Part shown: positions 48,572 through 64,000 of the stretch, piece after piece | Position numbering within the stretch: position 1 is the first letter of the stretch | How the letters are laid out: every line of letters begins with the position of its first letter | The notes under the pieces: model-generated | The model's input: only the letters and a program-made list of their open reading frames with translations | The model's database searches: none | Told to the model about the DNA's origin: nothing | Virus record (IMG/VR): IMGVR_UViG_3300030060_005186 | From: an uncultured virus (IMG/VR IMGVR_UViG_3300030060_005186) | Lineage: Duplodnaviria; Heunggongvirae; Uroviricota; Caudoviricetes | Strand: one strand, 5' to 3' | DNA: 64,000 nt | Made by a program: the position numbers and the translations under genes

Positions 48572-50413
48572 CTATTGTTGGAAACTGTTGTGGTCTTTTT
48601 GGTTGCCAAGAGGGTCACTCGCGGTCTCCATCGCATCTTCTACTGATTGTACCGCTTGCTCTAAAGGAGTCTTTTTCTTGCCTCTCTGGTTCTTGGTCCT
48701 CTTAGGTGACCCTGATTGGTGAGTGTCCGAACTAACTGGTGCCGGTCCTCTGTCCCGTTGGCCAGTGCCTTCTCCTAGACCCATGGCTTTGGCTATGCCG
48801 GGTGGGGGTGCTTGACCACCGGGAGGCATGCCACCGGGTGGGGGTTGTGGTCCACCGGGAGGCAGTCCTCCGGGTGCCGCTCCACCGGGGGGCGGTCCAC
48901 CGGGTGCTGCTCCTCCCGGTTGAGGGACTCCAGCAGGTGGTGGGCCGGGATTCGGTTGAGCCTGCTGTGCTTGCATCGCAGCCTCCTCTGGAGAAGGCAC
49001 TCTATACACGAATCTGATGTCTCGGCCAGCGTCTTCAGTCAACTCAGGCTGGAAGCCGAGGGCCTGCATCCTCTGGGCGATATTGACTTCCATCTCGTCT
49101 CGTCGGAGACGCGTGACATCATCCTCCTCCTCATTCGGCCTGAGCGTCAACTCCCAGTCAGTGGTGCCCATCTCTGTTAGCAGTCTCGGGAACAACTCAC
49201 GAGAATACAGTTTCTGGCCATACTCCACTGCTCTGTTCGTAACGAGTATCTGCAAGCCCTCGTTATTGAGGCCTCCACCCTTCCCCGTATCCATCATGAA
49301 GACGTTGGAAACTCCGTAGAAAGCCGCTATCCTCATGCGCAACTCATCGCGTACAGCGCCGTACTGCATCTCATCGAGAGAGTCCATGAAACGGACGAAT
49401 TCCACACGACCTCTACCTGTAGCAGATTCTATACCGACCTTGGGTATGTAGTTGGGGTCACGCTCCATCTTCTCCTCAGCGCCCTTCCAGAAGGAGGCAG
49501 TGGATTGGATGTTGTCTGTCGTGATAGCGAGGACGCCTCTGGGTATCCTCCTCTTCTGGTAAGCGAGGTACATGTAGTTGTCCATGGCGGATAGCGTCAT
49601 TGCTTGACGCCACATAGTAGCAACAGGGCTCCTACCGTAGAGTTTCGTCGGGTTGAATTTGGATATGTGGAGTATCTCACCGTCTATGTAGTACTGGGTC
49701 TTACCAGAACCTGCAGTGTTGATGTGGTGCACGTCTTGCAGTTCTAGTCCACAGGTCTCGCATTCCTTGTGGTCTCCAGTGAGTGGGTAGGTGCGGTCTC
49801 TATGGACTGGGCAGACGAGATACCGACCCCCTCTGACACCCCTCTTGTCTGATACGATGCGAATGAAGGTGGGGTCACCTCTGAGTACCTCTTTGATGCG
49901 GAAGAACTGTATCTTGCCACTGTCCGGGTCCATGTAATACTCCTTGATGAGAACTAGGAATGCGTCATCCACGACATTCAAGTCCCATTCAATCTCCCTC
50001 AGTACGTCAGTGAATGACTGGTCCATCGAATTACGCTGCTCAGTCAGCCATCTGGGGTATATGACTTGGTCTGGGTCTGGACTCTTCATCTCCTTGCTGT
50101 TGCAGAAGTGACATTCCTCGACGTCATGCTGGTATTCCTCGGAGCACGTCATGCACTTCTTGTGGAACTTCTTCTTCCAATAGTGACCACGTCGGAATAT
50201 CTCTTGCGATAGTGTGTTCAAGGTGGTTCGTAGAATCACGCTCTCCTGCACAGTGGCGTAGAGTGCAGGTATGCTGACGCCTTGCACTAGCACGGGTTCC
50301 TGTATCCCTGCTTTCCACAGGGGCATGATAGGCTCAGGAGTGGTCTTTCGACGGAAGCGGTCGGTGAGGCCGCTCATTAACCTCCCTAGTGGCCCTTTCT
50401 TGTCATCCGCCAT
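48572..50413 (-). CDS. Portal protein
   Basis: DL.VVDDAFLV, EILHISKFNP..LYGRSPV, DEMQY..RIAAFYGVS. Downstream of terminase. Two Cys-rich inserts and a P/G-rich tail. Confidence 0.9.
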   Translation of the reverse strand: MADDKKGPLGRLMSGLTDRFRRKTTPEPIMPLWKAGIQEPVLVQGVSIPALYATVQESVILRTTLNTLSQEIFRRGHYWKKKFHKKCMTCSEEYQHDVEECHFCNSKEMKSPDPDQVIYPRWLTEQRNSMDQSFTDVLREIEWDLNVVDDAFLVLIKEYYMDPDSGKIQFFRIKEVLRGDPTFIRIVSDKRGVRGGRYLVCPVHRDRTYPLTGDHKECETCGLELQDVHHINTAGSGKTQYYIDGEILHISKFNPTKLYGRSPVATMWRQAMTLSAMDNYMYLAYQKRRIPRGVLAITTDNIQSTASFWKGAEEKMERDPNYIPKVGIESATGRGRVEFVRFMDSLDEMQYGAVRDELRMRIAAFYGVSNVFMMDTGKGGGLNNEGLQILVTNRAVEYGQKLYSRELFPRLLTEMGTTDWELTLRPNEEEDDVTRLRRDEMEVNIAQRMQALGFQPELTEDAGRDIRFVYRVPSPEEAAMQAQQAQPNPGPPPAGVPQPGGAAPGGPPPGGAAPGGLPPGGPQPPPGGMPPGGQAPPPGIAKAMGLGEGTGQRDRGPAPVSSDTHQSGSPKRTKNQRGKKKTPLEQAVQSVEDAMETASDPLGNQKDHNSFQQ

Positions 50414-51777
50414 CAGACATCACCAACCAACGTGCTCGCTTCGTCAACTAATTTAATCATCTCAGGGTCCTCTTGGGCCCACGAGGCGACCTCTTGTTCA
50501 TCAACATTCCACTCATTTAGCAGGTCTTCCGCCTTTACATCGCGCCAGTTCTCCCACTTCACCACGCGATACAAGTCGTCACGGCGTTGCTTGACCAAGT
50601 CACTGCTACGCCCTCTCAAGTCTAGCAACTCAAGCACGCAATCTGCTTGCTTCTTCTTCAACTGGAGGAAGGGACGTGTGTTCTTGAGCAGTCTCTGCAA
50701 GTCGTCCTTGCTATAGAACTGCAAGCGATGCTGACTGCGCTTGCTGTTCTTGTGCAACTTCAGGTCTAGTTGGAGCACTCCGCACCCGAGCGTTTTATGG
50801 AGTTGCTCGCAATGCAATCGCCCTCTGTCTCCAGTGGCGATTATGCCAGCCCTCCCCTCTCCTCTCTTCGTGATTGTGATATAGCCATCAGCGTCGAGGA
50901 AGCCAGCGGTGTACGCCCATGGGTCCTTCAAAATCAGGTAGTCGTTCACGGTAGCCTTCTCCCAACGAGAGGTGTTCTTGACGATGTCGAAGTCGTCTCC
51001 GTGCATCTTCAACAAGGCTCCTAGCCTCTGAGTGGTCAGGCCAGTGTTCCGTGCATCGTGCTGGTGGATGTGGTGGAGTATGGTCCGAGAGTCCATGGCG
51101 CCGAACTCGCCTAGCACGTCAGATGCCGATTCAAGCCAGACTACCTCTTTCTTGGTGAGGCTGTCCGACTGATGCAGGGTATTGCGCCACATCTTCTTCG
51201 ACTCGTTTCTCTTCGCTAGTGCCTCTACCCATAGAGAAGCCTGCTCTTCGGAGAAGTCCCCTGTGACCTGACTGAGTTTGCTAATGACGTCGTTGGCATT
51301 CTCCCACTGGAGGCAAGCCTGCTTCAACGACACCTCACGAGTGATAGCATGTTTCCTGAGAGCCTTGAGGTTTCGCTCCGATAGGCCTAGTTGCTTCATG
51401 GTGTTCTGATGCTCATGTGACCACGGGATGGAGTTCAACAGGCTGTCCACCTCCATTTTCTTCATGCCCCTAATCAAATCTATAGCATCGTCTATCTCCT
51501 CTCTGTGCTGCTTGTGCAATCTTCTCTTCTTGCGCAGTTCTTTGACCATCTGATTGGCGTCCTTGTCGAAGCGAGACGTGAACCAACCCGCAGTGTCGAA
51601 TTGCACGGGACTCAGTTGGGCAGGCTCGCTTTCAAGCGACTCAGGACGCTCGAGCGATTCGTAGTGCTTCAGTATGGGGTTGGTGGACAGTTGCTTCTCT
51701 ACCCATATCTTGTCTATGTCTAACTCGTTTGTAGCAAAGTCAAAGTCATCACCGAGTAAATCACTGCCCCAACTCAC
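50413..51777 (-). CDS. Protein with a C-terminal single-motif LAGLIDADG endonuclease-like domain
   Basis: YTAGFLDADGYI..LGCGVL..PFLQLKKKQA. Probable GTG start at 51777 with GAGGTG RBS (track start 51816). Confidence 0.8.
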   Translation of the reverse strand: MSWGSDLLGDDFDFATNELDIDKIWVEKQLSTNPILKHYESLERPESLESEPAQLSPVQFDTAGWFTSRFDKDANQMVKELRKKRRLHKQHREEIDDAIDLIRGMKKMEVDSLLNSIPWSHEHQNTMKQLGLSERNLKALRKHAITREVSLKQACLQWENANDVISKLSQVTGDFSEEQASLWVEALAKRNESKKMWRNTLHQSDSLTKKEVVWLESASDVLGEFGAMDSRTILHHIHQHDARNTGLTTQRLGALLKMHGDDFDIVKNTSRWEKATVNDYLILKDPWAYTAGFLDADGYITITKRGEGRAGIIATGDRGRLHCEQLHKTLGCGVLQLDLKLHKNSKRSQHRLQFYSKDDLQRLLKNTRPFLQLKKKQADCVLELLDLRGRSSDLVKQRRDDLYRVVKWENWRDVKAEDLLNEWNVDEQEVASWAQEDPEMIKLVDEASTLVGDV

Positions 51778-51778
51778 T

Positions 51779-52099
51779 TCAAGCACCTCTACATACAGGA
51801 CAAGGTTCTGACTCATCCTCCGCTCCTACTTCTCCCGCACCTTTGCAAACAGGACAATTGTCGTCGCCTTTGATACCTAACCAATCCATCATCTCCTTAT
51901 TTTCTGCGGGGGACAACTCCTCTCTGAAATCAGGCATCGGTTCTCCACGACAATGATGCATATCATATCCATTCTGGCTCAGGAATCTCCTCTTGCACTT
52001 GTCGCACTGTATGCCTGTCCTAAGTCGGGCTAAATCTTTTGGGCTCAAATCAGAGGCGTCGGGGGTTTCTTCACCTTTCAGAACAGCCCACCAACTCAA
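51779..52099 (-). CDS. Small zinc-finger accessory protein with N-terminal SWWAVLKG motif
   Basis: CDKC..F....Y..HHC finger plus CPVCKGAG/CPVCRG repeats. Lower GC than the terminase gene. Confidence 0.7.
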   Translation of the reverse strand: MSWWAVLKGEETPDASDLSPKDLARLRTGIQCDKCKRRFLSQNGYDMHHCRGEPMPDFREELSPAENKEMMDWLGIKGDDNCPVCKGAGEVGAEDESEPCPVCRGA

Positions 52100-53505
52100 T
52101 CTATCAACCCCGACATCAACGCGTCCAAGTCTATGATTCTCTCACGGAACTCGGTAGTGGCCCAATTGCCCAGAGCGAGGGCTATGGCGAAGTCATCGTG
52201 CCTAGCGATGCTGTCCAACTTCCCCTCCTTGCTCATTCCAAACATGATTAGTTCGTGCTCCAATTGGCTGACGATGTCGCGTGACCTCTCGTCTCCCCAT
52301 GGTAAGCGAATCTGCTCTCGCTCAAAGCGAAGCACCAGACCCATAAGAAGGCTCTCTCTCCTCTGCTTGGTACTGATGAAAGTCTTGATGGGCAGGTCTG
52401 TGTCAGCCCTGAGTTCAGTAGCGAAGACACGCTGGAAGTGGTTGGCCTCCAGTTCTATGACCTCAGGGCGGAACTTGCTGTTCAAACGCTGTATCTCGAT
52501 TATCTGCGTCCTGAAGTCCATGCCCTTCTTGCGCACCACATGCACCAGTTCCAGAGTCTCGGGAGCGTCCGCTGGTCTGCGTAACACGAGCATGACAGTG
52601 TAGTCAGCCTGCCTGTCTGAGGATATGGCAGGGTCCCAGCCTATGAAATACTGACTGTCATCGTCACGGTCACGCCTGTCCATCAGCACGAGGTTCGGCT
52701 CCTTGCACGCATTGACCACGGTAGAGGGGAACAGGCTGGACATGTCGTCCATAGGCTCGCAGAGATACTCACGGGTGAAGGCGATGGCAGGCATATCCAT
52801 CCGCCTAGCGTCTAATGCTTCCAAGGACCACCTCCACGGCCATAGCGGCTCGCCCTTCGCATTGATTGCAGGATAAGTCTCAACTAGATACCCGTCTCTC
52901 CTCTCCAGTTCGGTATAGAGGTCAGTAGGAGTGAACGGGGTTCCTACCACGCACAACTGTGATGTGTGATGGAGCGTAGGTACGAGGACCTCGTAGAACC
53001 AAGAGGCGACACGCTGCAGTTCGGTGTCCGTAGTCCCCCAGAGTATGTCGTCTAGCAGAATCAAATCGGGGTGAGCGCCTCTGACACCACCACCGACTGA
53101 CTTGGCGTTGATTCGAGAGCCGTTGGTGAAGCCGAAGAACGTCTTGGACCAAGCGTCCTTGTCCTTCATCTTCGCTAGCATGGGACTGGACTCAATCAGG
53201 TCATTGAGGCCTCTCATGTGCCTGATGGATTGGTCTAGGCTGTGGCTGAAAATCATCGTATCCAAACGTGGTGTGAATATGACCTTCCATAGCAAATAGC
53301 CAAGGAACAAAGTAGATTTGCCGTGGTCTCGAGATGCTTTCACGCAATACCTGTTGTGGGTGTTGAGGTTGTGGAACCACTTGGCATGATGGTCGGCCAA
53401 CTGCCAACCGAGTATCTCCTCGAAAAAGAACTTGAAGTCCTTCTTCGCCATCTCCCAGTCTATGTCTTCTATGACTTGTGGGACTTCGTTCGACACACTC
53501 ACCAC
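52096..53505 (-). CDS. terL: Terminase large subunit
   Basis: Walker A ASRDHGKST, Walker B LILLDD, VVGTP, FTREYLC, nuclease motifs IGWDPA..DYT and HDD..IALAL. Confidence 0.95.
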   Translation of the reverse strand: MVSVSNEVPQVIEDIDWEMAKKDFKFFFEEILGWQLADHHAKWFHNLNTHNRYCVKASRDHGKSTLFLGYLLWKVIFTPRLDTMIFSHSLDQSIRHMRGLNDLIESSPMLAKMKDKDAWSKTFFGFTNGSRINAKSVGGGVRGAHPDLILLDDILWGTTDTELQRVASWFYEVLVPTLHHTSQLCVVGTPFTPTDLYTELERRDGYLVETYPAINAKGEPLWPWRWSLEALDARRMDMPAIAFTREYLCEPMDDMSSLFPSTVVNACKEPNLVLMDRRDRDDDSQYFIGWDPAISSDRQADYTVMLVLRRPADAPETLELVHVVRKKGMDFRTQIIEIQRLNSKFRPEVIELEANHFQRVFATELRADTDLPIKTFISTKQRRESLLMGLVLRFEREQIRLPWGDERSRDIVSQLEHELIMFGMSKEGKLDSIARHDDFAIALALGNWATTEFRERIIDLDALMSGLID

Positions 53506-56132
53506 TCCTCCTTGAAGAAGGTGTCAAACGCCCTGTCTAGAGGGTCATCGCTCTTTCCTAATTGCGATTCGTTTTCTAGCATTTGCTTGTAGTATGCTTT
53601 TACCTCGTCGACACGCTTGCCTGCTGCAATCGCTGCCTCCATTATCGTCTTGTTTTTCTGTTTTTGAGTCATGTTATCAGTCAGAGACTTCGCCCCATCA
53701 AGGATAGGCTCTCGTAGATAATTGATGAGAGGAGTGGCGTCTGAAGCCGATACTGCTTGAAACAGAGGGTCTTCCATTACATTTTCACTCGTAGGTGTGT
53801 TGAGAACCTCCGCGAAATTCTCACCTAGGGAGTCTCTGATTGCCGCGAAAGGCTCGTTAGCAGCCATTTCCAAGGGAGTGCCTCTCCCTTCTCTCCGAGC
53901 GATGATGTCTTGTACGTTCCCAGCCATTTGAGGCATTGTCTCTTCACCCGTCAGTTCTGGGTTGTCCATGTTGAAAGCGTCAGTCTCCTCGGTGGTTCCC
54001 TCTCTAGCAGCAGCAGGTTCTGCGTTTGCGGCACTTGACCTAACTCCAGTTCGCTTCTTCTTCTTCTTATCGTAGCCTTGCGCTTTTCGCTGTGCGAGGA
54101 AAGCGTCTCTCCCGACTCCGTGGACGTTCGGGAGCAAGTCATACAGAGCCGCTTCAGAGGGCCTCACCGCGTATGACTCCGCTCCCTCCTCATCGGGGAA
54201 CTCAGCCATCGTCTCCTGTGCCCCTTCCAAGGCGTCGTACTCCCACACTGCAGGGTCTCTGGTATTGTCACCACCTAACCGGGCTATGGAATCCAAGAAA
54301 CTACCACGCCCGGAGAAGGGCTTGATTCGACCTGTGCCTTTGGTCACTTGGGAAGCGATGGTAGCATCATCGACTCCCATGCTCTTCAGGTAATTGATGT
54401 AGTTCGCCACTTCCTCGTTGTACCTCTTCTCGGTCTCCTTGAAGTCTATCTCCCCATCATCGGTCATGCTGAATATCCCCCCGGTATCGGAGTCTCTCAT
54501 TCCTTCCACCATGTTCGCTGTATGACTTCTCATCAGGCCTTTGTATTTCGAGGAGAATGGAGGGTCTACGTACTTCTCCCCCGTAGTGGGGTCTATTAGT
54601 TGGTCTCTGCGCAATTGCCCTCCTATGTTACCTGCGTGTCCTAATCTAGACAGCATTTGCCTTCTCTTCGCCGTTCTATTCATGCCCATCGGGTAATCGT
54701 ATATTCTAGGAGGCGCTGCGCCTTGCCTCATGTCCATCGCAGACCTGCCTGCGACGTAGTCTGCGTCACCTTCCTCACCCACACCGGCTACGGCAGGGAA
54801 GGCACGATGCCCGTAGTCATAGCCATCGTAAGTCTCAGCCTCTTCAAGAGGTTCCTCCTCCTTTTCTTCTTCAGGTCCTACTTGAGTAATCGGTTCTGTA
54901 GGAGTTTCTCTTTCTCCTCCAGCAGGGGGTGGGGCTGTAACTCTCTCGCCCCGGTTTTGAGCATCTGCCATCTCGCGTGCGTTTGCAGTTCTTCGCACAC
55001 CTACTCCTCCCTCATTGCCCTGAGGCAATTGAGTCTCAAGCCCCCCTTGCTCGTCACCAAGTTCATCTCCCTCGGGAGGTTCCTCAGGTTGTGCGTCAGG
55101 TTGTTCATCTCGCCCAAATCTGTTGTTGTATATCTCTAAGATTCTATCCCGCGCTAGTTGACGATTGTGAGGGCTAACATTTTTGTCGTTTGCTAGGGAG
55201 TCATATCTGAGAACCTGTTGTCGGTCCTCAGGGCTAAGCGCTAGGAACTCCGCGGAGTTTTCTCGTGAGGGGAAGAGAGCCTGCTGGAAAGCAGTGTCCA
55301 GAGCCTCTCGTTGCACAGGGTCGAGATTTCCTCTGTTCTTATCCGCTCTGTTCGCTGCTTGGGTTGCGGCGTACACCTCTCTGAAACGCTCATGCTCCTC
55401 TGGACTCGCACCTATCAGCAAGTCAGCCAATGCTCTCTTGTCTCTCTTGTGTCGAGAGTAGTCCTTCGCTTCTTGTTGTAAGCCCTTAGCCCAATCGCGC
55501 ACTTTCCTAGGCAATCCCATGAGGGCTCTAGCAGAACCCCCTGCCGCTGCAGCCATTGTCCGAGCAGCACGGTCACCCATACCGGGCTGGATAGTGGCTC
55601 CCGGCATGTTCGGGTCATCCTCGGGAAGTTGATACTCGAACTGATACGGCTTGTCTCCAGTTGGCACTTTCTGACCGCGGGCTTGCGCGTAGCGACGCTG
55701 ACGGGCTATTTCCTTCCGACTCCCAGCATTTATGGAGGGACTCACGACGCCTACTCTACTCATGGCAGGCGCAGTAGAGAATGGGGCAGGTGCGCGGTCT
55801 TCTCCCACTGTCACAGGAGGCGCTGCTGCTGGAGGCGCTGCTGCTGGAGCCGCTGCTGGAGGAGGGGGAGGAGGAGCACGAACACTAGTTTGCGGTGCGC
55901 TGAACATGCCTCCTTGGTCAAGCCCGTGCATTCGACGGCTTACCGGGTCAGTCAAGTTAGGAACCGCGCCCGGCGCAGTCGCTTTGGTGAATAGGCCAGA
56001 GTCCTCATCACCGAAGAACACGTAATCGTACACTGCCTCTGTGGCATTGTAACTTTTGAGAAGGAGATACACAGCAACGCTGTCACCATAGGCGATTCTC
56101 GAGACTTGGAATTCAGTGGTATTCATAGTCAT
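53499..56132 (-). CDS. Large hypothetical protein, largely disordered/acidic (candidate internal virion protein)
   Basis: 877-aa coupled ORF with P/A- and E-rich tracts. Confidence 0.7.
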   Translation of the reverse strand: MTMNTTEFQVSRIAYGDSVAVYLLLKSYNATEAVYDYVFFGDEDSGLFTKATAPGAVPNLTDPVSRRMHGLDQGGMFSAPQTSVRAPPPPPPAAAPAAAPPAAAPPVTVGEDRAPAPFSTAPAMSRVGVVSPSINAGSRKEIARQRRYAQARGQKVPTGDKPYQFEYQLPEDDPNMPGATIQPGMGDRAARTMAAAAGGSARALMGLPRKVRDWAKGLQQEAKDYSRHKRDKRALADLLIGASPEEHERFREVYAATQAANRADKNRGNLDPVQREALDTAFQQALFPSRENSAEFLALSPEDRQQVLRYDSLANDKNVSPHNRQLARDRILEIYNNRFGRDEQPDAQPEEPPEGDELGDEQGGLETQLPQGNEGGVGVRRTANAREMADAQNRGERVTAPPPAGGERETPTEPITQVGPEEEKEEEPLEEAETYDGYDYGHRAFPAVAGVGEEGDADYVAGRSAMDMRQGAAPPRIYDYPMGMNRTAKRRQMLSRLGHAGNIGGQLRRDQLIDPTTGEKYVDPPFSSKYKGLMRSHTANMVEGMRDSDTGGIFSMTDDGEIDFKETEKRYNEEVANYINYLKSMGVDDATIASQVTKGTGRIKPFSGRGSFLDSIARLGGDNTRDPAVWEYDALEGAQETMAEFPDEEGAESYAVRPSEAALYDLLPNVHGVGRDAFLAQRKAQGYDKKKKKRTGVRSSAANAEPAAAREGTTEETDAFNMDNPELTGEETMPQMAGNVQDIIARREGRGTPLEMAANEPFAAIRDSLGENFAEVLNTPTSENVMEDPLFQAVSASDATPLINYLREPILDGAKSLTDNMTQKQKNKTIMEAAIAAGKRVDEVKAYYKQMLENESQLGKSDDPLDRAFDTFFKEEW
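55816..55860. repeat. 15-nt tandem repeat encoding AAAPP
   Basis: ggaggcgctgctgct x2 plus a degenerate third copy. Confidence 0.7.
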
Positions 56133-57889
56133 GAGAACGCTCCGCGTGATAATTTGACAGCGCTGACGATACGGGGGTCAATCATTAGCGTTTTGGCAAT
56201 AACATGCCAATCTCCACGACTCTCGGTAATGAACTTCAAATCGTTTGTAGTTAAGGAGAATTCTTTACAGAGGTCTTCGTCGTCGGTCCATTGAGGCAGA
56301 GACTTGACTATGCTCATGTCCGTCTTAGCATCAGCCAATTGAAGTCTCTCCATGAGGTCGTACAGACTTTGCTCTGAAGTCTGCACGAGTCCGGGATTGT
56401 CACCGGGACCGATGAAAGTTCGATTACCATCGTCATCAGTTGTCGAACCCATGGCCATCTGTGAAGCATAGAGAGACTCAGGCACTGTCGGGTTGGTTAT
56501 GTGAGAGATGTCTATCTCCCCTTCATTCAAGCCCCTCTGAGTGAGAAGTCTACGACTGGGCTTGTCTTGGTCGGGGAACAAGCCATTGATGTAATTGGAG
56601 ATTGCCCCATAATGGTCAGTATGGTCACGGTAACTCTGTATGTGGTCGCTGTCGAGTCCTGCGTTTCTCAGCATTTGCGAGATAGCCAGCGATTCTAGCA
56701 TCCTCGTGCCTACGGAGTTGGGTATCCCCAGCCTCCCCATGCCTGTTGCTCGATAGCCACGGACCAAGGATTGCTGCTCTCGTTGTACCTCTTCGTGAGT
56801 CTTTCCTGTGGCTTCCATGATACGACCATAGAGAGCCTCTATGTTGCTGTTGATAGCGCTACGACCTCCTCTTGTGGGGTTATCGTCACGAAGCCCGTTC
56901 CATAGCGAGCCGATTACTGTCCCTGAGAGGAGGCTGGCATTCCTATCATCGTAGCCTGCATCCATGAACTTCTGCTTCGCTTCTTCAGTCCCTCCGCTTT
57001 CTCTGTCCTTAGCATGGAAGAACGTCGAGTCCAAGCCTGCTAGGATGTGCCTGATATCCACGTTCTCGCGAGCGGATAGTTGTGCCTCATCGGAGAAGAA
57101 TGGAGAATCTGGGGCTACGTCTGTATTCTTGTATCTTCTGACTAGATTTGGGACCTCTTGCTCATTTACGTCTACCATGACGTCTTGGGGTTCTAGATGC
57201 CCGTAGAGCCCTATTCTCGTGGGGACGTAAGTGCCGTTCAACTTCGCTGCGTCCTTGTAAGGCTGCCCGTGGCCGATAATCTCTCCGAACTCCCTCCAAG
57301 AGGGGAATGCCGCACTCTCTAGAACGTCACCGCCTTGGAAACTGGTGACGTCCTTGCTGTTCTTGTAGAATGTGACGTGACCGTGCTTGTTGTGCGGTGT
57401 GTGCATTTCAGTCTGCTTGTCTCTGGGATAGTCTCCCACTACGACTTTGGACCAAGCGTCATTCAGCCTGCCGTTCGCATCGAAGTAGAGGTCGATTCTC
57501 TGCCCAGCAGGCACTTTACGATTGTACATTTCGACAGACTTGTTCATGAGTTCCTTGGCTCGCTTCAACCTCGCTTCGTAAGAGACATTTGCGAAAGCAG
57601 GGACTTTCTTCATATCAGCAGCGATTTTCTTAGCAGCGCCCTCTATGGGGAAAGCGTGCTCTATAGTGCCATTCGGATTGTCTTCCGACCTGACGGCGTT
57701 GAGTAACTTCCCAGTCTTGGGATGCACCATCCATGGATTGAGGGAATCATCAGTTATTGAACCCGCAGAGAAGGGGATGTAGTTGATGACTTGCTCACCG
57801 TTCTCATCGAGCACTGGATTCCCGTTCTCGTCGAACATGGGCTCGTGCAAGAAGACACCCTTACCCTTGATTATAAAATCAGTCATCAC
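56129..57889 (-). CDS. Hypothetical protein (586 aa)
   Basis: Coupled ORF. Possible short helical/HTH-like C-terminal domain. Confidence 0.7.
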   Translation of the reverse strand: MMTDFIIKGKGVFLHEPMFDENGNPVLDENGEQVINYIPFSAGSITDDSLNPWMVHPKTGKLLNAVRSEDNPNGTIEHAFPIEGAAKKIAADMKKVPAFANVSYEARLKRAKELMNKSVEMYNRKVPAGQRIDLYFDANGRLNDAWSKVVVGDYPRDKQTEMHTPHNKHGHVTFYKNSKDVTSFQGGDVLESAAFPSWREFGEIIGHGQPYKDAAKLNGTYVPTRIGLYGHLEPQDVMVDVNEQEVPNLVRRYKNTDVAPDSPFFSDEAQLSARENVDIRHILAGLDSTFFHAKDRESGGTEEAKQKFMDAGYDDRNASLLSGTVIGSLWNGLRDDNPTRGGRSAINSNIEALYGRIMEATGKTHEEVQREQQSLVRGYRATGMGRLGIPNSVGTRMLESLAISQMLRNAGLDSDHIQSYRDHTDHYGAISNYINGLFPDQDKPSRRLLTQRGLNEGEIDISHITNPTVPESLYASQMAMGSTTDDDGNRTFIGPGDNPGLVQTSEQSLYDLMERLQLADAKTDMSIVKSLPQWTDDEDLCKEFSLTTNDLKFITESRGDWHVIAKTLMIDPRIVSAVKLSRGAFS

Positions 57890-59175
57890 ATATGCCCCCT
57901 TCTAGCGACGATGCCGATGGGATGGGTGCCCCAGTACCTCGGGTCATCCTCAGGGTCGACATCAGTAGGCCCTCGGACATTGCTAGTGGTCTTACGATGA
58001 GCATTCGGCGTGGGTCTCTCATCATCATGCTCTGCGTCTTCCAAACCTGCCTTCCTGAAAACATTGGAACGCAAGACGCGACGGAGTTCACGTATGAGTA
58101 TCTTCAACTCAGCGATGTCAGAGATGGATAGTTCGGCTTTGTGCATCATATCCAGAGAGCCGCCCACTGGAGTGGGGTCTGTGGGAGACGCTCCTGTCGC
58201 TAGGCTAGTCTGGCTTGACGTTCCCTGACCGAGAGGTGTGCCTGCCGTCTTAGGCTGCCTCAATGCCTTCTTGTGTCGCATTTGCGTACCACCCCGACCA
58301 CTGTAGTTCTTGGTGCGCCCTTCAGCCATTGGTAGGATGTTGTTAGGAGTGTATGGTTGTGCTTGTGGGACATAGCGGGAGTGCCCTTGGTGGAATATCT
58401 GCCTCGCACGGTCTCGCGGATTCTTGCTGTATGCCGCTTGCCCGCTTTTCGTGCCTTGGAATCGAGAGGCAGTCACTCTAGGGAACCAGAAACCAGCAGC
58501 CCTGCTTATGCCAGCCAAGCCGCCTTGAATGATTTTCTTCGCTCCATTCATCATCCTAGTTATCCTAGATGGGTCACGAGAGGTGATTTTGAGTTTCTTC
58601 CCGAAGACGTTCTTAGCACTATTGAGGAAGCGCTTGGCCAGCAAGCCCTTCTTCTTTCTGGCTTTCTCCTTGGAAGTGCCTAACTTGCTGCTGAAGAGCC
58701 TAGGCGGTGTCAATGGCTTGGAAGTCTGCTTGACATTCGCGTAGGATATCTTCTTGATGTCTGAGAATGCGAGTTCCATAGGCTCACCAGTCATGATGTT
58801 GGGGCCTCCCATCGCGGAACCAGTCCCGGTCTTGGCACCTACTGCTACATCGAGAGGGAATCCTGTGCTGCTAGCAGGGCCAGTCATTTCCGACAACTCT
58901 TGGTCATTTCGCTGGTCGTCCAACTCGGGCCTCTTCTTGTCTTTTACTCGGATGGCTACGTGCTCTAGACTTTCGAGGTCACGCAGGCGATTGTCCCTCT
59001 CCCGCCTCTTCTTATCATCCTCGCGCTCTTTGCCCGCAGGGTCGTCTCTACCGTAGTTTCTGTCCTCCTCTGCGAACTCAGGAGCCTCTCTGGGATTGAA
59101 TCTCAGACCGGAAGTGGAACCACGATTGCCGCCACCAGCGTACTTGAGCACTAGGATTTTCTTCTTACCAGCCAT
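57886..59175 (-). CDS. Hypothetical basic, low-complexity protein (429 aa)
   Basis: Coupled ORF with a K/R-rich centre. Confidence 0.7.
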   Translation of the reverse strand: MAGKKKILVLKYAGGGNRGSTSGLRFNPREAPEFAEEDRNYGRDDPAGKEREDDKKRRERDNRLRDLESLEHVAIRVKDKKRPELDDQRNDQELSEMTGPASSTGFPLDVAVGAKTGTGSAMGGPNIMTGEPMELAFSDIKKISYANVKQTSKPLTPPRLFSSKLGTSKEKARKKKGLLAKRFLNSAKNVFGKKLKITSRDPSRITRMMNGAKKIIQGGLAGISRAAGFWFPRVTASRFQGTKSGQAAYSKNPRDRARQIFHQGHSRYVPQAQPYTPNNILPMAEGRTKNYSGRGGTQMRHKKALRQPKTAGTPLGQGTSSQTSLATGASPTDPTPVGGSLDMMHKAELSISDIAELKILIRELRRVLRSNVFRKAGLEDAEHDDERPTPNAHRKTTSNVRGPTDVDPEDDPRYWGTHPIGIVARRGHM

Positions 59176-59602
59176 TCTTCCCCTCCAGTATGGTCTCTGT
59201 CGTGCTCATCAAGCGGCTGTTGATGTTGAAGTAGAACTCTTTGAGAGGCTGAGGACCAGTGAATACCTCAGCCATGTGGTCTATGATTTTGTAGAAGTCA
59301 TCCAAACAGGAGTGCAACTGTCTTCGTACATCGAATATCGACTCGTCGTCAATGGTACTGACTTTCGTGAAGAGATGATTGAGATTGGACAACGTGCCGA
59401 TATCCTCGTTGTAGCCATAGTAGACATTAGGGCGAATCTTGCCAAGAGCGGAGTACCACCTGTTCATCACGTCCTCTACCAGAGAGAGGAACAACTGCAT
59501 CTCCTTCTTGTGTATGGGACCAGTGTCCGTCAGGATGGAGGACAATCTCAAGTCTTCGCACATCAGAGTAGTAACGGGTGTGAGCATGGTAGGGTTATTC
59601 AT
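59165..59602 (-). CDS. Hypothetical protein
   Basis: Probable start MNNPTML at 59602, overlapping the upstream stop (track start 59692). Confidence 0.6.
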   Translation of the reverse strand: MNNPTMLTPVTTLMCEDLRLSSILTDTGPIHKKEMQLFLSLVEDVMNRWYSALGKIRPNVYYGYNEDIGTLSNLNHLFTKVSTIDDESIFDVRRQLHSCLDDFYKIIDHMAEVFTGPQPLKEFYFNINSRLMSTTETILEGKNGW

Positions 59603-60278
59603 CGACGACCTCCGCATCTTCTTCCAACAATTTGGCCCTAACCCTCTTCCACACCTCTGGTGATTCCTTGGCCAATTCCACCTTGATGACATTCACAGTA
59701 TCGGCTTGTATGCTCGCACTGCTTTCACCCATGGCCTTCTCTTGGAATCGAACCATCGTCGTGAGTGTGTCGCGTACCTCCTTGTGGAGGCTCACCAGAT
59801 TCTTGATGTACGACGGGTCGTTTCTGTCCGCATCATCAAGGAACAAGTCTAGTTCACCATTGACTCGCTCTAGATTGCTTCTCATCATATCCATCTCCTT
59901 CCCTGTAGCGATGGATACTATGTCAGCCGCGCTCTTCTGCACCAACGGCTTTAGGTGGTGCTTCAAGTGGTGATACACTGTCGACTCGCTGCAGCCAATA
60001 ACATCCGCAACGGCCTCGCTTGTCATGCCCCCTGTGAAGTAAGCCTGCTCTACCTCAGCCCTCTCGGGGTGAGTACAAACTACACAATCACTGTTTGAGC
60101 CCATATGGAACTCCCCCATGTGGTTTCTGAAATGCCGGTCTGCTGTGCCTTCTCTCCAACCCATGTCCTTGTCTAGCATCTTCGGGATTATCGCCCCTTG
60201 GATGAGCCCTTCTTCCAAGTTGTCACGGTCCCCATGCTGGCAGAAAGCGCAAGATTGACGTGTAACGCGTCCACTCAC
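59595..60278 (-). CDS. Duplicated CxxCxH / HTH DNA-binding protein (terminase small subunit candidate)
   Basis: Two units: CAFCQH..ADRHFRNH and CVVCTH..SEAVADVIGCSESTVYHHLKHH, then a coiled coil. Start uncertain (GTG at 60278 or 60299). Confidence 0.65.
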   Translation of the reverse strand: MSGRVTRQSCAFCQHGDRDNLEEGLIQGAIIPKMLDKDMGWREGTADRHFRNHMGEFHMGSNSDCVVCTHPERAEVEQAYFTGGMTSEAVADVIGCSESTVYHHLKHHLKPLVQKSAADIVSIATGKEMDMMRSNLERVNGELDLFLDDADRNDPSYIKNLVSLHKEVRDTLTTMVRFQEKAMGESSASIQADTVNVIKVELAKESPEVWKRVRAKLLEEDAEVVDE

Positions 60279-60283
60279 GACGC

Positions 60284-60625
60284 ATGAGACGAGGGCCACG
60301 CTCTAAGGTCTTTCGTTTGGGACGAGCGAGAAAAGTCCTAGGTGTACCTGTCACGAGAGACACCGCGAAAGACCTCAATCAGGCAATGAAGGACATACTA
60401 TCCAGAAGTCATGCTCCCGATGAGGTGAAAGCAGCACGCAAGGAAGTATGCATGTCTTGCGAGCACAGGCGAGAGGCTCGTTGCGACCTTTGTGGGTGTT
60501 TCATAGATTACAAAGCAAAACTACGAAACAGCGAGTGCCCTGTGGGAAAGTGGTCAGGCCTTGTCTCCGAGGCGCTTGTAGACAGTCCCGGTGAGCAACA
60601 GGCTAGTGAACAGGACTCCCATTGA
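60284..60625 (+). CDS. Small Cys-rich protein (DUF6171-like); the only plus-strand gene
   Basis: R..CxxC-x7-CxxCGC...K......CP.GKW pattern. Occupies the only large gap among minus-strand genes. Confidence 0.75.
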   Translation: MRRGPRSKVFRLGRARKVLGVPVTRDTAKDLNQAMKDILSRSHAPDEVKAARKEVCMSCEHRREARCDLCGCFIDYKAKLRNSECPVGKWSGLVSEALVDSPGEQQASEQDSH

Positions 60626-60796
60626 GTACATGAGTTCTGTCTGGTTCATATCGTAAGCCGAATAGGCGATGAGCAGGAACGCACCTAGTGTCAGGCTCAT
60701 GACTTGCACCATTATCATGTCAATGAGAGATGACTTCTTTATCTGAGTCATGTCATACATGCCGTACATCATGTCGTTGAATGTGTCTATGGGCAT
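60554..60796 (-). CDS. Small two-TM membrane protein
   Basis: Two hydrophobic stretches (IMVQVMSLTLGAFLLIAY; LMYSMGVLFTSLLLTGTVY) and a basic end. Confidence 0.7.
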   Translation of the reverse strand: MPIDTFNDMMYGMYDMTQIKKSSLIDMIMVQVMSLTLGAFLLIAYSAYDMNQTELMYSMGVLFTSLLLTGTVYKRLGDKA

Positions 60797-61428
60797 TATC
60801 GCACCCCCATCATGCTTCTGAACACGCTACCCACACCACTACCCACGCTTTCCATCATGCCCGGATTTGCCATTGCAGCGCTCAAAGCGCCACTCATGAG
60901 GTTCTGCTGGACCATGTTGAGAATGGCCTGCTGTTGCTGATGGGCCGCAGTCACTTGCGCTTGTGCTGCATTCTGCAAGTTGTTTGCCTCCATGGTGACG
61001 CTATCAGAGGTAGGTGCGGTAGAGAATGATGCGAAATCGAATATCATGTCGCCGTTAGCGTCTTCGACTATCTTGGCATTTTTGAGTACCTCGATAGTGG
61101 CTAGGCTGCTGACCTTGTACATGAGGGAGACGAGAGTCTGCATGTTGGGGCCTGAGAACCACCTGTCGACTGGAGCGCTGGTTTGCATCAAAGCGGCCAT
61201 TACTTCCAAATCCGATGGTGGCGCCATGGGCGCTGCTGGCTGCACGCCCATAGCCCCCATGAGACCAGCACCGAATGATGCTCCAGTCTGGTCGTACATG
61301 GGAGGTGCACCCCATCCCCCCATATTCGTCCCTCCGGGAGCATATTGTTGTGGAAGAGATTGCTGGCCGTTAGGTAGGCCTAGAGAAAGGGTGTTAGCGG
61401 TGTCATTGGAAGAGCCGAATAAATTCAT
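60796..61428 (-). CDS. Hypothetical Q/A/M/G-rich protein
   Basis: Coupled ORF. The C-terminus looks amphipathic (MMESVGSGVGSVFRSMMG). Confidence 0.7.
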   Translation of the reverse strand: MNLFGSSNDTANTLSLGLPNGQQSLPQQYAPGGTNMGGWGAPPMYDQTGASFGAGLMGAMGVQPAAPMAPPSDLEVMAALMQTSAPVDRWFSGPNMQTLVSLMYKVSSLATIEVLKNAKIVEDANGDMIFDFASFSTAPTSDSVTMEANNLQNAAQAQVTAAHQQQQAILNMVQQNLMSGALSAAMANPGMMESVGSGVGSVFRSMMGVR

Positions 61429-62420
61429 TCTTTCACCTCTGGTGGAGCGTCTTCACTCACTGCTTGTGATGAAGGGGCAGGAGCCGTCTGGCTTAACAGT
61501 TCCGCGAGACCCATGCTATTCACTGTAGGAGTGTCTGTGGGTAGAGGAGGTGCACTCATCTCAGCATCTGTCAAGAGTCGATTATTCGCACCAGTCTGGA
61601 ATTGCTCCATGTCGAATATGACTATTACTTGCTTGTCTCTCTTCATCGCGTCTTTGATGCGCACGACTGGGATGTTATCCTGCTTGAGCATATTGAAGAA
61701 AGGCTCGTACGGGGCTAATTGTGGAGGAGTATTGTCCTTCATGGCGAAGCCAGTGACGGGCACAGTGACCATAGACACGCCTTTGTTGAGTTTAGTCTTG
61801 AGACTGCTCGTAGTGCCGCTCTCCTCTTCTTGCTCGGCTCTTTCCCACTTGGTTAAGAGATGATACAAATGGAGATGCTCAGGGCAGTATGTGCCTCGTA
61901 GCAATCTACCACTCGTGACGTGTTCTCTTGCTTGGAAAGCCTGAGGCGCCCCCGTCACTGGGTCTTTGAAGTACAGGTCGTACAAGGACTCACCAGTATC
62001 CTCGTCCTTTATCATGTCGTAGACGTTTCCGGCAGCCCTGAGTAGTTCATCTATATCGCAGCCGTCGACGACGCAACGAGTGGCATCTCCCACGAAAGCA
62101 TACTTGCCACCGAACCAGTATCTTCTTGGGGAGAGTATGCTTCTCTTGGTGGGCGCAAGCAACTTGTAGGCTTGGCGGATGTCAGCCTTTCTGGCTTTCT
62201 TGGGGTTGGGGTGGTTGGAAGGGTAGAAGTTCACCTTCGGTATCTCGATGTGTCGCTGCATAGCAGCGTCCTGCATCATGTTTTGGGCTTGAGCCATCTG
62301 CTGCAACTGAGCAAGGGGCACCTGCGAGTTTGCTGCTAGGTGTACCATTTCTTGACTCGTCTGCGTTGCTAGAGGCTGCCCGGCAGTTTGTCCGAAAGGG
62401 TTTATCGTGTTCATTACCAT
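61425..62420 (-). CDS. Hypothetical protein, possible metal-binding site
   Basis: CVVDGC ... YCPEH. Q-rich N-terminus. GGTGA RBS. Confidence 0.7.
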   Translation of the reverse strand: MVMNTINPFGQTAGQPLATQTSQEMVHLAANSQVPLAQLQQMAQAQNMMQDAAMQRHIEIPKVNFYPSNHPNPKKARKADIRQAYKLLAPTKRSILSPRRYWFGGKYAFVGDATRCVVDGCDIDELLRAAGNVYDMIKDEDTGESLYDLYFKDPVTGAPQAFQAREHVTSGRLLRGTYCPEHLHLYHLLTKWERAEQEEESGTTSSLKTKLNKGVSMVTVPVTGFAMKDNTPPQLAPYEPFFNMLKQDNIPVVRIKDAMKRDKQVIVIFDMEQFQTGANNRLLTDAEMSAPPLPTDTPTVNSMGLAELLSQTAPAPSSQAVSEDAPPEVKE

Positions 62421-62424
62421 TATA

Positions 62425-63144
62425 TCACCAACTGAGCATCTCGAGGAGGCTCTGCTCGACGTTCCACCCTATCTTGGTCGCCATCATGTTGACTCGGCAG
62501 GGTATGCCTGCCTTTTGGAGTTTCACCATGGATTCCCTGTAAGGGTCGAATATGTTGTGCTCTCGGAGCCTCTTGGCCTGCCACAGGATGTTCGCGTTCT
62601 GGTCCCACCACTTGTCGGCCTTGTTGGCGATTACCCATATCTGCTTTGGAGCGTATTTTCGCCCTTTCCACCAAGTCTTGAGGCTGCGATATCTCCAGTT
62701 TCTCTCTATCAATGACTCTACGAGGTAGTCTAGTCCCCCCACTGCGTCTATTATGTCCGCATTCGAGCCACTCTTCCCTCTGTCGTCTATCAGGAATACT
62801 ACTACTTCCACCTGTCTCTCGACCATGTCGTCGACCCACAGGTTCCAGAATCTCTGCTGCCCTCCGAGGTCTGCGGAGTGGATGACTCTTTTCTCTCCAT
62901 GCCATCTCACTCTCTTTCTTGTAGCCTTGGGGAGTACGTGACCCCCTCCTACTAGGCGTGAAGTATGAGTCGTCCTTTCTTCTATGTCGGCCATTTCCCC
63001 CGGAGTCGTCATGTACCTGTCTAACGTAGTCTTTCCAACCATTGACGGCCCGTACACGCCAATCCTCCGTGGTTTCAGAAAGTTGTAGAGTTCCTTCCCG
63101 TACACCACCGCACCCATCAGTACTGAACCTGCTACTCCTACCAT
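62425..63144 (-). CDS. Arf/Sar1-like small GTPase (Ras superfamily)
   Basis: G1 GPSMVGKTT, G2-like RTT, G3 DLGGQ, VVVFLID, G4 NKAD, G5-like MATKIGWNVEQSL. Hydrophobic/amphipathic N-terminal helix. Confidence 0.85.
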   Translation of the reverse strand: MVGVAGSVLMGAVVYGKELYNFLKPRRIGVYGPSMVGKTTLDRYMTTPGEMADIEERTTHTSRLVGGGHVLPKATRKRVRWHGEKRVIHSADLGGQQRFWNLWVDDMVERQVEVVVFLIDDRGKSGSNADIIDAVGGLDYLVESLIERNWRYRSLKTWWKGRKYAPKQIWVIANKADKWWDQNANILWQAKRLREHNIFDPYRESMVKLQKAGIPCRVNMMATKIGWNVEQSLLEMLSW

Positions 63145-63152
63145 TCAATAAA

Positions 63153-63404
63153 TCACGTCCATGAGTTTACTTTCTCTTGAGCATATTCGATGAACCACTC
63201 TATCGTTCTGTTCCACACGCTGATATCGAGAGTCTTCTCGACGAAGGACGTGATGAAAACAGCACTGACAGTGAAAAGTAGAGTTCGAGCCCATCCCCAA
63301 CCATACTCGTAATAGTTGTCTAGGGTGTTTGCCATGTGCAACCCTCTCAGGGTCGCTTCGGTAGTGTCATCACTTGGAGTGTGAAACAGCCAACCCATAC
63401 TCAA
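63153..63404 (-). CDS. Small membrane protein
   Basis: One TM segment (WARTLLFTVSAVFITSFV) followed by a W-rich amphipathic helix. Confidence 0.65.
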   Translation of the reverse strand: MSMGWLFHTPSDDTTEATLRGLHMANTLDNYYEYGWGWARTLLFTVSAVFITSFVEKTLDISVWNRTIEWFIEYAQEKVNSWT

Positions 63405-63982
63405 GCCTTCTTGGAAGCAAACTTTCCACCCTTGTCACGAGTCTGGCCTTTATTACTCTGACTCTTGGTCACAGCCTTGCTCCCACCGAGGTCTATACCG
63501 CCTTTGTCCTCGGCTGCGTGTTGAGGTAGACTCGATTCGATACCATTCATTTCCAAATCGTTTTGATGCTCAAGCATGTTCAACTGCCTCATGAATTGGG
63601 CTTCCTGCAATTTCATCTCGACTTCCATCTGCTTGTTGGCCATGACTTGCTGCATGCCTTGCATCTTGCGAGCCCTGTCTCTGTCCATCCTTGCGAATGT
63701 CGCTCGATGGTCGAGGTTCTCCTGCATAAGCAGTTTGTAGAGAACGAAGGACATACCTTGGAGAGTGAAGGCCCCCATCGCGTAAGTCGCTGCATTTGTT
63801 CGGACGTCACCTTCTGTTCTGAGCCAAAGCCCTGCATCGAACACTGCGATTGCGGCGCCGACTAGTATGGATACGAAAGTTATCAGACCCAACACCCGTA
63901 TCTCATCAGTGTTGGAGTCGCTTGGTTGTAATGGCGGTAGGGACTGCATACTCACTGTTCTCCTTGAGACCCGGACATACAA
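63401..63982 (-). CDS. Two-TM membrane protein with coiled coil
   Basis: VLGLITFVSILVGAAIAVF and YAMGAFTLQGMSFVLY, then a Q/M/E coiled coil. Ends RDKGGKFASK. True start probably 63949-63955. Confidence 0.7.
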   Translation of the reverse strand: MYVRVSRRTVSMQSLPPLQPSDSNTDEIRVLGLITFVSILVGAAIAVFDAGLWLRTEGDVRTNAATYAMGAFTLQGMSFVLYKLLMQENLDHRATFARMDRDRARKMQGMQQVMANKQMEVEMKLQEAQFMRQLNMLEHQNDLEMNGIESSLPQHAAEDKGGIDLGGSKAVTKSQSNKGQTRDKGGKFASKKA

Positions 63983-64000
63983 CTAGCACATATACCCTCC

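Follow-up and report, generated by a model that had tools for sequence, protein, structure and literature searches.

What does a Ras-like small GTPase do in a run of membrane-protein genes of a tailed virus, and from which GTPases does it descend? These questions are raised by a six-gene cassette (g1 to g6) on the minus strand of IMGVR_UViG_3300030060_005186, an IMG/VR record of an uncultured virus. "The window" below means the whole 64-kb stretch of this record and not the cassette only. A first-pass annotation, made from the sequence alone, had placed the product of the third gene, g3, in the Arf/Sar1/Arl clade and proposed the operon as a candidate membrane-remodelling or egress system. In this study, we found that g3 is a virus-encoded small GTPase of the Ras superfamily and that the viral GTPase-membrane cassette is real, conserved and apparently undescribed. 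Sequence comparisons point to a separate, insertion-bearing lineage of prokaryotic GTPases for g3, which is probably not an Arf by descent.

The GTPase and its cassette

The cassette and the box ahead of it are laid out as follows (aa, amino acids; nt, nucleotides; TM, transmembrane).

63989..63994, minus strand: TATA-like box, candidate cassette promoter, 45-40 nt upstream of the g1 ATG
63401..63949, minus strand: g1, 182 aa, TM helices near the N-terminus and a long helical charged C-terminal tail
63153..63398, minus strand: g2, 81 aa, one central TM helix
62425..63144, minus strand: g3, 239 aa, divergent small GTPase, from motifs and AlphaFold2 fold
61425..62420, minus strand: g4, 331 aa, soluble, with a probable Cys3His zinc site, from alignments and model
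60796..61428, minus strand: g5, 210 aa, Q/M/G-rich and disordered at the N-terminus, then a conserved core and an amphipathic helix at the C-terminus
60554..60796, minus strand: g6, 80 aa, two TM helices (hydropathy 2.03 and 1.42), accessory and lineage-restricted

The first-pass annotation was right in calling g3 an intact small GTPase. Motifs G1 to G5 are all intact, with GPSMVGKTT at residues 32-40, RT at 57-58, DLGGQ-x6-W at 92-103, NKAD at 174-177 and MATKIG at 221-226, and GTP binding and hydrolysis are predicted from them. Among 136 unique homologs, G1 (GxxxxGK[ST]), G3 (DxxG) and G4 (NKxD) are invariant wherever the region is present. The Arg before the presumed G2 Thr (Arg57-Thr58) was found in 140/140 homologs; one truncated open reading frame (ORF) of 141 was left out of this motif census. 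Two more divergent database homologs (P0125 and P0150) are without this Arg, and P0125 as a query found no viral contig. One GTPase copy (G160:C1:44482-45195) has an internal TGA stop, which is either an assembly error or a broken gene.

The AlphaFold2 model of g3 (predicted local distance difference test score, pLDDT, 74) has a Ras fold with a helix at residues 2-23. Foldseek matched it with probability 1.0 to Rac, Rab and Arf chains, with Rac and Rab first and GerdArfR1 at rank 22. By VIA-align, LokiRagO (Z 14.4; root mean square deviation 3.2, 168 aligned), Arf6 (14.1), SRbeta (13.8), a mimivirus Rab (13.4) and Sar1 (13.3) were the best matches; Rag, Arf6, SRbeta and the Rab differ by no more than 1 Z unit and are thus tied, and the table lists no MglA or ArvA-type structures and so is not an exclusion of them. 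Rab/Ran-like GTPases of giant eukaryotic viruses, which are likewise virus-encoded members of the Ras superfamily, were the top BFVD structure matches of g3, but their identity is 10-21% and their hosts are eukaryotic; no protein of a prokaryotic virus was among the 50 matches listed. As a single query, the g3 sequence had no significant match in Pfam, PHROGs, NCBIfam or PDB. IMG automatically labels some homologs "GTPase SAR1 family protein".

Two parts of g3 could contact the membrane. The N-terminal helix had been described as hydrophobic/amphipathic, and both properties are present in succession: the first 11 residues are hydrophobic and non-amphipathic (moment about 0.1) and the amphipathic stretch comes second, in the next 11 (moment 0.5-0.7). 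Position 2 is Val, in agreement with the reported lack of a Gly2 myristoylation site. The other part is a basic/aromatic insertion (about residues 147-166) ahead of the G4 strand, where the net charge is at least +5 in 47/58 sequences.

All six ORFs of the coupled operon were found where they had been placed. Going from g1 to g6, successive genes are separated by 2, 8 and 4 nt and then overlap by 4 and 1 nt. Translation of g1 and g2 probably begins at the ATGs at 63949 and 63398, respectively, and not at the TTGs upstream of them. The TM, Cys/His, Q/M/G and amphipathic-tail descriptions of the five partners held with one reservation. By 19-residue Kyte-Doolittle hydropathy, the single TM helix of g2 peaks at 1.43 (family mean 1.82), while g1, expected to have two TM helices, has one strong helix (2.65) and a second that is only marginal (1.23). 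The small protein g6 does have two TM helices. The membrane helices of g1, g2 and g6 are joined by short loops, and we infer that the C-terminal tail of g1 is cytoplasmic. The Cys/His character of g4 lies in conserved Cys116, Cys179 and His182, plus Cys121 or a CxxC variant, and the resulting Cys3His site (C116, C121, C179, H182) probably binds zinc. The g5 protein is 27% Q+M+G, and its amphipathic tail has a moment of 0.56 (family mean 0.49).

The g4 model (pLDDT 73.5, confident at residues 21-200) had no Foldseek match at E<=0.001, and its best VIA match (Z 5.2 over 38 residues) is a short helical piece. No match to g5 was found in PDB, in the family libraries (Pfam, PHROG, NCBIfam) or in Atlas, and no Pfam, PHROG or NCBIfam family matched g1.

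Conservation was examined by IMG/VR scans with g3 and three distant homologs, which gave the best 80 of 97, the best 80 of 140, 13 and 4 loci. Groups A to D are our own names for these four locus sets and not published groups. The counts take in only loci with enough flank, and since the loci were found via the GTPase, they show co-conservation and not prevalence. In group A, the 80 closest loci, the g1-g6 order recurs wherever the flanks suffice, with g1 and g2 in 75/75 upstream and g4, g5 and g6 in 80/80 downstream. In group B, g4 and g5 are present in 65/65 loci, and g1, g2 and g6 were undetected (g6 in 0/65 informative loci). Group C has g1, g4, g5 and g6 in 12/12, and group D has g1 and g4 in 4/4, g2 and g5 in 1/4 and g6 in 0/4. 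The synteny of the core is therefore strict: g3-g4-g5 are adjacent in 80/80, 65/65 and 12/12 loci of groups A, B and C, and g3-g4 in 4/4 of group D. Across the groups, g4 lies downstream of g3 in 164/164 informative loci and g5 was detected in 161/164, all three misses being in group D. Thus the six-gene unit proposed earlier holds in the closer lineages and not in group B.

Two small membrane genes stand directly upstream of the core in every lineage inspected. A g2 counterpart was indicated by hhalign in group C (probability 81%) and not in group B (<1%). In group B, a two-helix and a one-helix membrane gene occupy the g1 and g2 positions, and homology to g1 and g2 was undetected by hhalign (probability <2%). 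In a small independent sample of five contigs chosen by capsid protein, three contained the cassette and two stop short of its expected position. Some group-A loci have a small AbrB/MazE-like DNA-binding gene that separates g3 from g4 (L065:4995-5171, L069:6538-6729, L056:6728-6949); the g3-g4 gap exceeds 150 nt in 13/80 group-A loci, and the Pfam MazE_antitoxin score of the inserted gene is just under the cut-off.

The box upstream of g1 also recurs. The pattern WTATKW was found at -60 to -30 of g1, with a peak at -45 to -36, in 39/47 upstream regions of group A and 2/11 of group C, compared with 1/61 and 0/63 at the internal starts of g4 and g5 and a shuffle mean of 6.4 of 58. The pattern was picked after viewing the sequences, and the sequences counted are related. 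A search for RNA runs covering window positions 56000-64000 listed none.

Outside IMG/VR, tblastn of g3 against GenBank phages gave no match. A GTDB-wide scan with two patterns, which was the sole coverage of Poseidoniales host genomes, gave three matches (L178, L179 and L180) on contigs of metagenome-assembled genomes labelled Maricaulis, Promethearchaeati and Parvibaculum. We rejected these copies as cellular genes and read them as misbinned virus DNA, because the contigs are about 8 kb long and carry the cassette within a whole viral neighbourhood, and because two of the assemblies hold 3 and 2 such matches. Anyone looking for "Asgard" or "bacterial" copies could be misled by such contigs.

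Descent of the GTPase

The Arf assignment rested on DLGGQ-x6-W, said to match Arf1 including the catalytic Gln, together with the N-terminal helix. The resemblance is real, because the best small-GTPase PDB matches of a virus-only profile are GerdArfR1 (8OUN, E 2.2e-6) and Arl8 (E 1e-3), followed by Rab33B (0.019). RecA rows in the profile searches were discarded as an artefact of repeated P-loops in fusion constructs. Like the Arf family (GerdArfR1 8OUN/8OUM, Arl8, Sar1 and SRbeta), g3 has the fold, an N-terminal membrane-type helix, DxGG, the switch-II Trp and NKxD.

The defining Arf features given by Kahn et al. (2006, PMC2063696) include the signature wDvGGqxxxRxxW, an amphipathic N-terminal helix, Gly2, the P-loop Asp26 and a short retractable interswitch. 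Only half of the signature is present in the viral family. Its final Trp (D+11) is found in 140/140 homologs and GG in 122/136, but the Gln after DxGG is found in 84/140 (Glu in 43, Asp in 11, His in 2) and the switch-II Arg (D+8) in 13/140, with Trp there in 124. The residue ahead of the G3 Asp is Ala, Ser, Thr or Val and not the leading Trp. The equivalent of Asp26 is Ser or Thr in nearly all viral homologs, and Asp is in no group's residue list. The spacing from the G2 Thr to the G3 Asp, assuming that Thr58 is the G2 residue, is 24 in group B and 32-34 in groups A and C, compared with 19 in L197, a homolog of GerdArfR1. Val2 is not decisive, as Gly2 is also missing in Asgard ArfR and Arl8. 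In addition, g3 differs from Arf in having RT instead of PT at G2, an N-terminus that is hydrophobic and not purely amphipathic, two insertions absent from ArfR, and a viral genome with fixed partner genes.

Searching 1.84 billion representatives with the profile yielded 87 matches. Among 151 Asgard genomes, the cellular proteins that matched best were insertion-bearing GTPases of 212 residues (L182 and L183, 46-47 bits) and not ArfR. This L182 group, present in 20/151 of these genomes and scoring 43-47 bits with the viral profile, fits the description that Vargova et al. (bioRxiv 10.1101/2024.02.28.582541) give of Rup3 and is probably that family; the viral proteins would be its sister group at most. 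An unnamed family of 21 proteins (P0205, P0316-P0335) scored up to 53 bits; one member is labelled Bacteroidia and the family is probably bacterial. In hhalign against the viral profile, this bacterial family scored 122, three ArfR-like clusters 107, 99 and 91, the Rup3-like cluster 95, and the RasL-like, ArvA-like, Rag-like and MglA-like clusters 83, 67, 48 and 45. The name ArfR was validated for L197 only (331 bits to 8OUN; Pfam Arf 178 bits); the other cluster names are our own, taken from motifs and Pfam.

The tree was built from 77 sequences and 154 columns after redundancy reduction from 58 viral, 21 bacterial, 6 orphan and 106 Asgard sequences; it is without eukaryotic sequences, and long branches may attract in it. 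The viral clade was supported at 100/96 and lay outside a group of ArfR, RasL and Rag (80/93, not starred). It grouped with the bacterial and Rup3-like sequences in 136/200 bootstraps, with all ArfR-like sequences in 0/200 and with one small ArfR-like cluster in 7/200. When the ArvA outgroup and the longest branch were removed, a quick tree gave the viral/bacterial/Rup3-like grouping an approximate likelihood ratio (SH-aLRT) support of 95. A tree in which the viral clade was forced together with ArfR was not rejected (approximately unbiased test, p-AU 0.28).

Two length characters agree with the tree. The distance from the G3 Asp to the beta4 Asp is 28 in 58/58 viral, 26/26 Rup3-like and 17/21 bacterial sequences, against 26-27 in 17/18 ArfR-like sequences and 26 in the measurable 23/30 RasL-like sequences. 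From the beta4 Asp to the G4 Asn the distance is at least 45 in 57/58 viral, 26/26 Rup3-like and 20/21 bacterial sequences, and below 40 in 18/18 ArfR-like sequences. Therefore, we did not file g3 as an Arf. The L182 group and the bacterial family differ from g3 in their G3 motif, DxPG, and in having no invariant Arg at G2, and the Asgard group is without the N-terminal helix. At four loci inspected of these two groups, the neighbours included no cassette genes or clear membrane proteins, and a metagenome scan for the bacterial family gave one locus with no informative neighbours.

It is still conceivable, but in our judgement unlikely, that g3 is a true and highly diverged Arf or ArfR, captured from an Asgard or eukaryotic donor with the interswitch toggle kept. 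The GerdArfR1 and Arl8 matches, the invariant D+11 Trp with DxGG in most homologs, the N-terminal helix, the two small ArfR-like clusters that score above the Rup3-like one, and the unrejected constrained tree would all fit such an origin. The lack of the P-loop Asp, the rarity of the D+8 Arg, the long Thr-to-Asp spacing, the bootstraps and the two insertions common to the bacterial and Rup3-like groups speak against it, as does the window protein's lack of a Pfam Arf match at E<=0.5 beside the 178 bits of L197. Membership in the Arf/Sar1/Arl clade, as first proposed, was thus not upheld, and g3 is a cautionary case: "GGQ plus helix" is not enough to read a GTPase as an Arf.

Genomic context of the cassette

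The window belongs to a head-tail archaeal virus. Other features relevant to the locus are listed below.

60284-60625, plus strand: small Cys-rich gene (DUF6171/phrog_13558), overlapping the g6 end by 72 nt
59595-60299, minus strand: 234-aa protein with a helix-turn-helix and Cys/His pairs, weak match to a small-terminase family (E 0.035)
52096-53505, minus strand: large terminase gene
48572-50413, minus strand: portal gene
38047-39192, minus strand: major capsid protein gene

A maturation protease and a tape-measure-like protein are also encoded in the window, both on the minus strand. The top GenBank matches of the capsid protein are those of the haloviruses HVTV-1 and HCTV-1 (34%), and the longest IMG/VR relatives of the window are about 90-118 kb. 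We take the window to be probably a magrovirus, a virus of Poseidoniales, and the host is presumed from this identity.

The 234-aa gene is located after the cassette in 80/80 group-A and 12/13 group-C loci, and HCTV-1 has a 233-aa gene directly before its large terminase. The DUF6171 gene, which is convergent on g6, is kept in 72/80 group-A loci. Between the cassette and the large terminase, minus-strand 53499-59175 contains three large orphan genes (429, 586 and 877 aa) without family match. A 467-aa ORF (50413-51816, minus strand) between the large terminase and portal genes matches an HNH-endonuclease in its C-terminal part, and minus-strand ORFs of 5046 and 2111 aa (12498-27638 and 40649-46984) have no PHROG match.

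The cassette had been placed at the head of the late genes, which is true as one of at least three positions. In group A it stands ahead of the terminase region, and in group B it is flanked by the capsid gene on one side and neck-like genes on the other. In these two groups and in group C it is inside the morphogenesis module or immediately before it, and the group-D cassette comes after a chaperonin gene. Around the group-D cassette (L174, L177) there are many small orphan genes, and no head gene was recognised in the inspected flanks.

Role of the cassette

By analogy, the cassette probably works like the Arf/Sar1/ArvA membrane switches, with a GTPase that is probably not an Arf. The reading that we favour, although tentatively and at somewhat less than even confidence, is that it may be a GTP-switched machine on the cytoplasmic membrane face that breaches or remodels the host envelope for progeny exit. 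The cassette would be transcribed from its own TATA-like promoter. The g1 and g2 proteins, and g6 where present, would insert in the membrane with short outer loops only and mark a site, and the GTPase would dock by its hydrophobic N-terminal helix and its basic/aromatic insertion. The constant companions g4 and g5 would act as a regulator and as a polymerising or membrane-binding effector. Hydrolysis would be carried out by the GTPase's own Arg57, in an MglA-like manner, so that a partner need only position the active site. The GTP cycle would then time the membrane lesion or deformation that releases virions.

The arginine of this mechanism is modelled on MglA, whose intrinsic arginine finger is Arg53-Thr54, with Arg next to the G2 Thr (PMC3199381 and PMC4316618). 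Group 1 MglA of Myxococcus and Thermus shares with the viral family the invariant Arg directly before the G2 Thr, but MglA has TVPGQ at G3 and the roadblock GTPase-activating protein MglB, whereas g3 has DxGG and its neighbours gave no match to the roadblock family. The MglA-like Asgard cluster also had the lowest hhalign score to the viral profile. An invariant Arg that could act in trans was sought in the g4 alignments and none was found.

Several points favour exit. The cassette mostly lies inside the morphogenesis genes or immediately ahead of them, and the window contains no other recognisable lysis gene. A review (PMC10791045) describes the machinery by which tailed archaeal viruses exit as uncharacterised, and an archaeal small GTPase drives vesiculation (PMC10927574). 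The earlier statement that no holin or endolysin is recognisable stands: a PHROGs scan of 43 proteins or protein pieces from the window matched none of these families, with about 40% of the genome outside the window. Holin/lysis cassettes resemble the viral one in their small one- or two-helix membrane proteins, charged tails and location near morphogenesis genes. They differ from it in that the viral cassette has no holin match and no adjacent endolysin and includes a GTPase and two soluble partners.

The Haloferax protein is a small GTPase with an N-terminal helix that drives vesicle formation, and the ArvABC (OapABC) system of Haloferax volcanii is, like the viral cassette, a membrane-acting operon of an N-terminal-helix small GTPase, a zinc protein and a third partner (PMC10927574). 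Unlike ArvABC, the viral cassette adds integral membrane proteins. Neither g4 nor g5 has a Pfam match to DUF2072/DUF2073 (ArvC/ArvB), and ArvA-like proteins match the viral profile over the N-terminal part only (about 25 bits) and form a separate clade (100/100). The name ArvA-like is our own tentative assignment for these Asgard sequences, made from motifs. ArvA-like GTPases are common in the sampled Asgard genomes (L190-L193, L199-L201, L204-L207, L209 and L210).

Several observations weigh against an exit function. The main one is that HCTV-1 and HVTV-1, the closest named capsid relatives, are without a g3 or g4 match (0/4 when vir335 and vir519 are included), and therefore related tailed haloviruses, which are lytic, exit cells without the cassette. 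A lysis gene could lie outside the 64-kb window, since relatives reach about 90-118 kb. No holin family matched g1, g2 or g6, although holins are too diverse for exclusion by profile. The cassette of group D follows a chaperonin gene and not head genes. In the window, the convergent DUF6171 gene separates g6 from the genes downstream, so that late timing by read-through is unsupported. Finally, Thr58 is assigned to G2 from its invariance and from the RTVG seen in group B, and around this residue the g3 model is weak (pLDDT 53-68).

A bolder form of the egress proposal is that magroviruses exit by a novel lysis or egress machine, in which a GTP-timed, cis-arginine small GTPase, two novel soluble partners and small membrane proteins would open or bud the archaeal membrane, the GTPase being a deep insertion-bearing branch of the Ras superfamily common only to one Asgard group and scattered bacteria. 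Taken as a whole, we regard this as possible but doubtful.

The cassette might instead be a membrane platform for virion assembly or genome packaging that anchors proheads or packaging machinery, or that forms a membrane-bound compartment, with release timed by the GTPase. The position of the cassette between the major capsid protein and neck-like genes in group B and before the terminase/portal region in group A, and the probable cytoplasmic orientation of all large domains, are consistent with this. However, haloviruses with a homologous capsid protein assemble without the cassette, and its position relative to the head genes changes, which leaves the platform an unlikely explanation. It is similarly improbable that the cassette serves host takeover or exclusion, altering the envelope, division or vesicle output (for example to block superinfection) with no direct role in exit. 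A promoter-like box of its own, the location after the chaperonin gene in group D and the AbrB/MazE-like gene in some loci, which suggests regulated expression, could be explained in this way, but the fixed order in all sampled lineages is tighter than is general for accessory genes, and the capsid-picked contigs held the cassette wherever they reached the expected locus. Packaging of some cassette proteins in the virion, to form a channel for genome delivery through the host membrane, would suit the location among structural genes in group B, the membrane segments and the long helical regions of g1 and g5, but is very improbable, as ejection proteins are not typically soluble zinc proteins or switch GTPases and these genomes already have tape-measure and tail genes.

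The first-pass annotation had left novelty open. We found no description of a magrovirus GTPase cassette in print; the original 2017 magrovirus papers and most subscription journals were outside the coverage of this search. The term "GTP" is absent from the main text, as covered, of the magrovirus genome papers PMC11706807 and PMC10160649, and the covered part of the PMC11706807 supplement, from which the large annotation tables may be absent, contains no GTPase terms.

How tailed archaeal viruses leave cells that have no murein wall is an open question (PMC10791045). The cassette is a concrete and conserved egress candidate in an abundant marine virus group, and at about 3.4 kb it is expressible in a laboratory archaeon. 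Whatever its role, it puts a Ras-like switch GTPase into a conserved gene block of prokaryotic viruses, which we have not found described, and the apparent kinship of g3 with an insertion-bearing Asgard group and a bacterial family, and not with ArfR, bears on the origin of Arf-like membrane switches.

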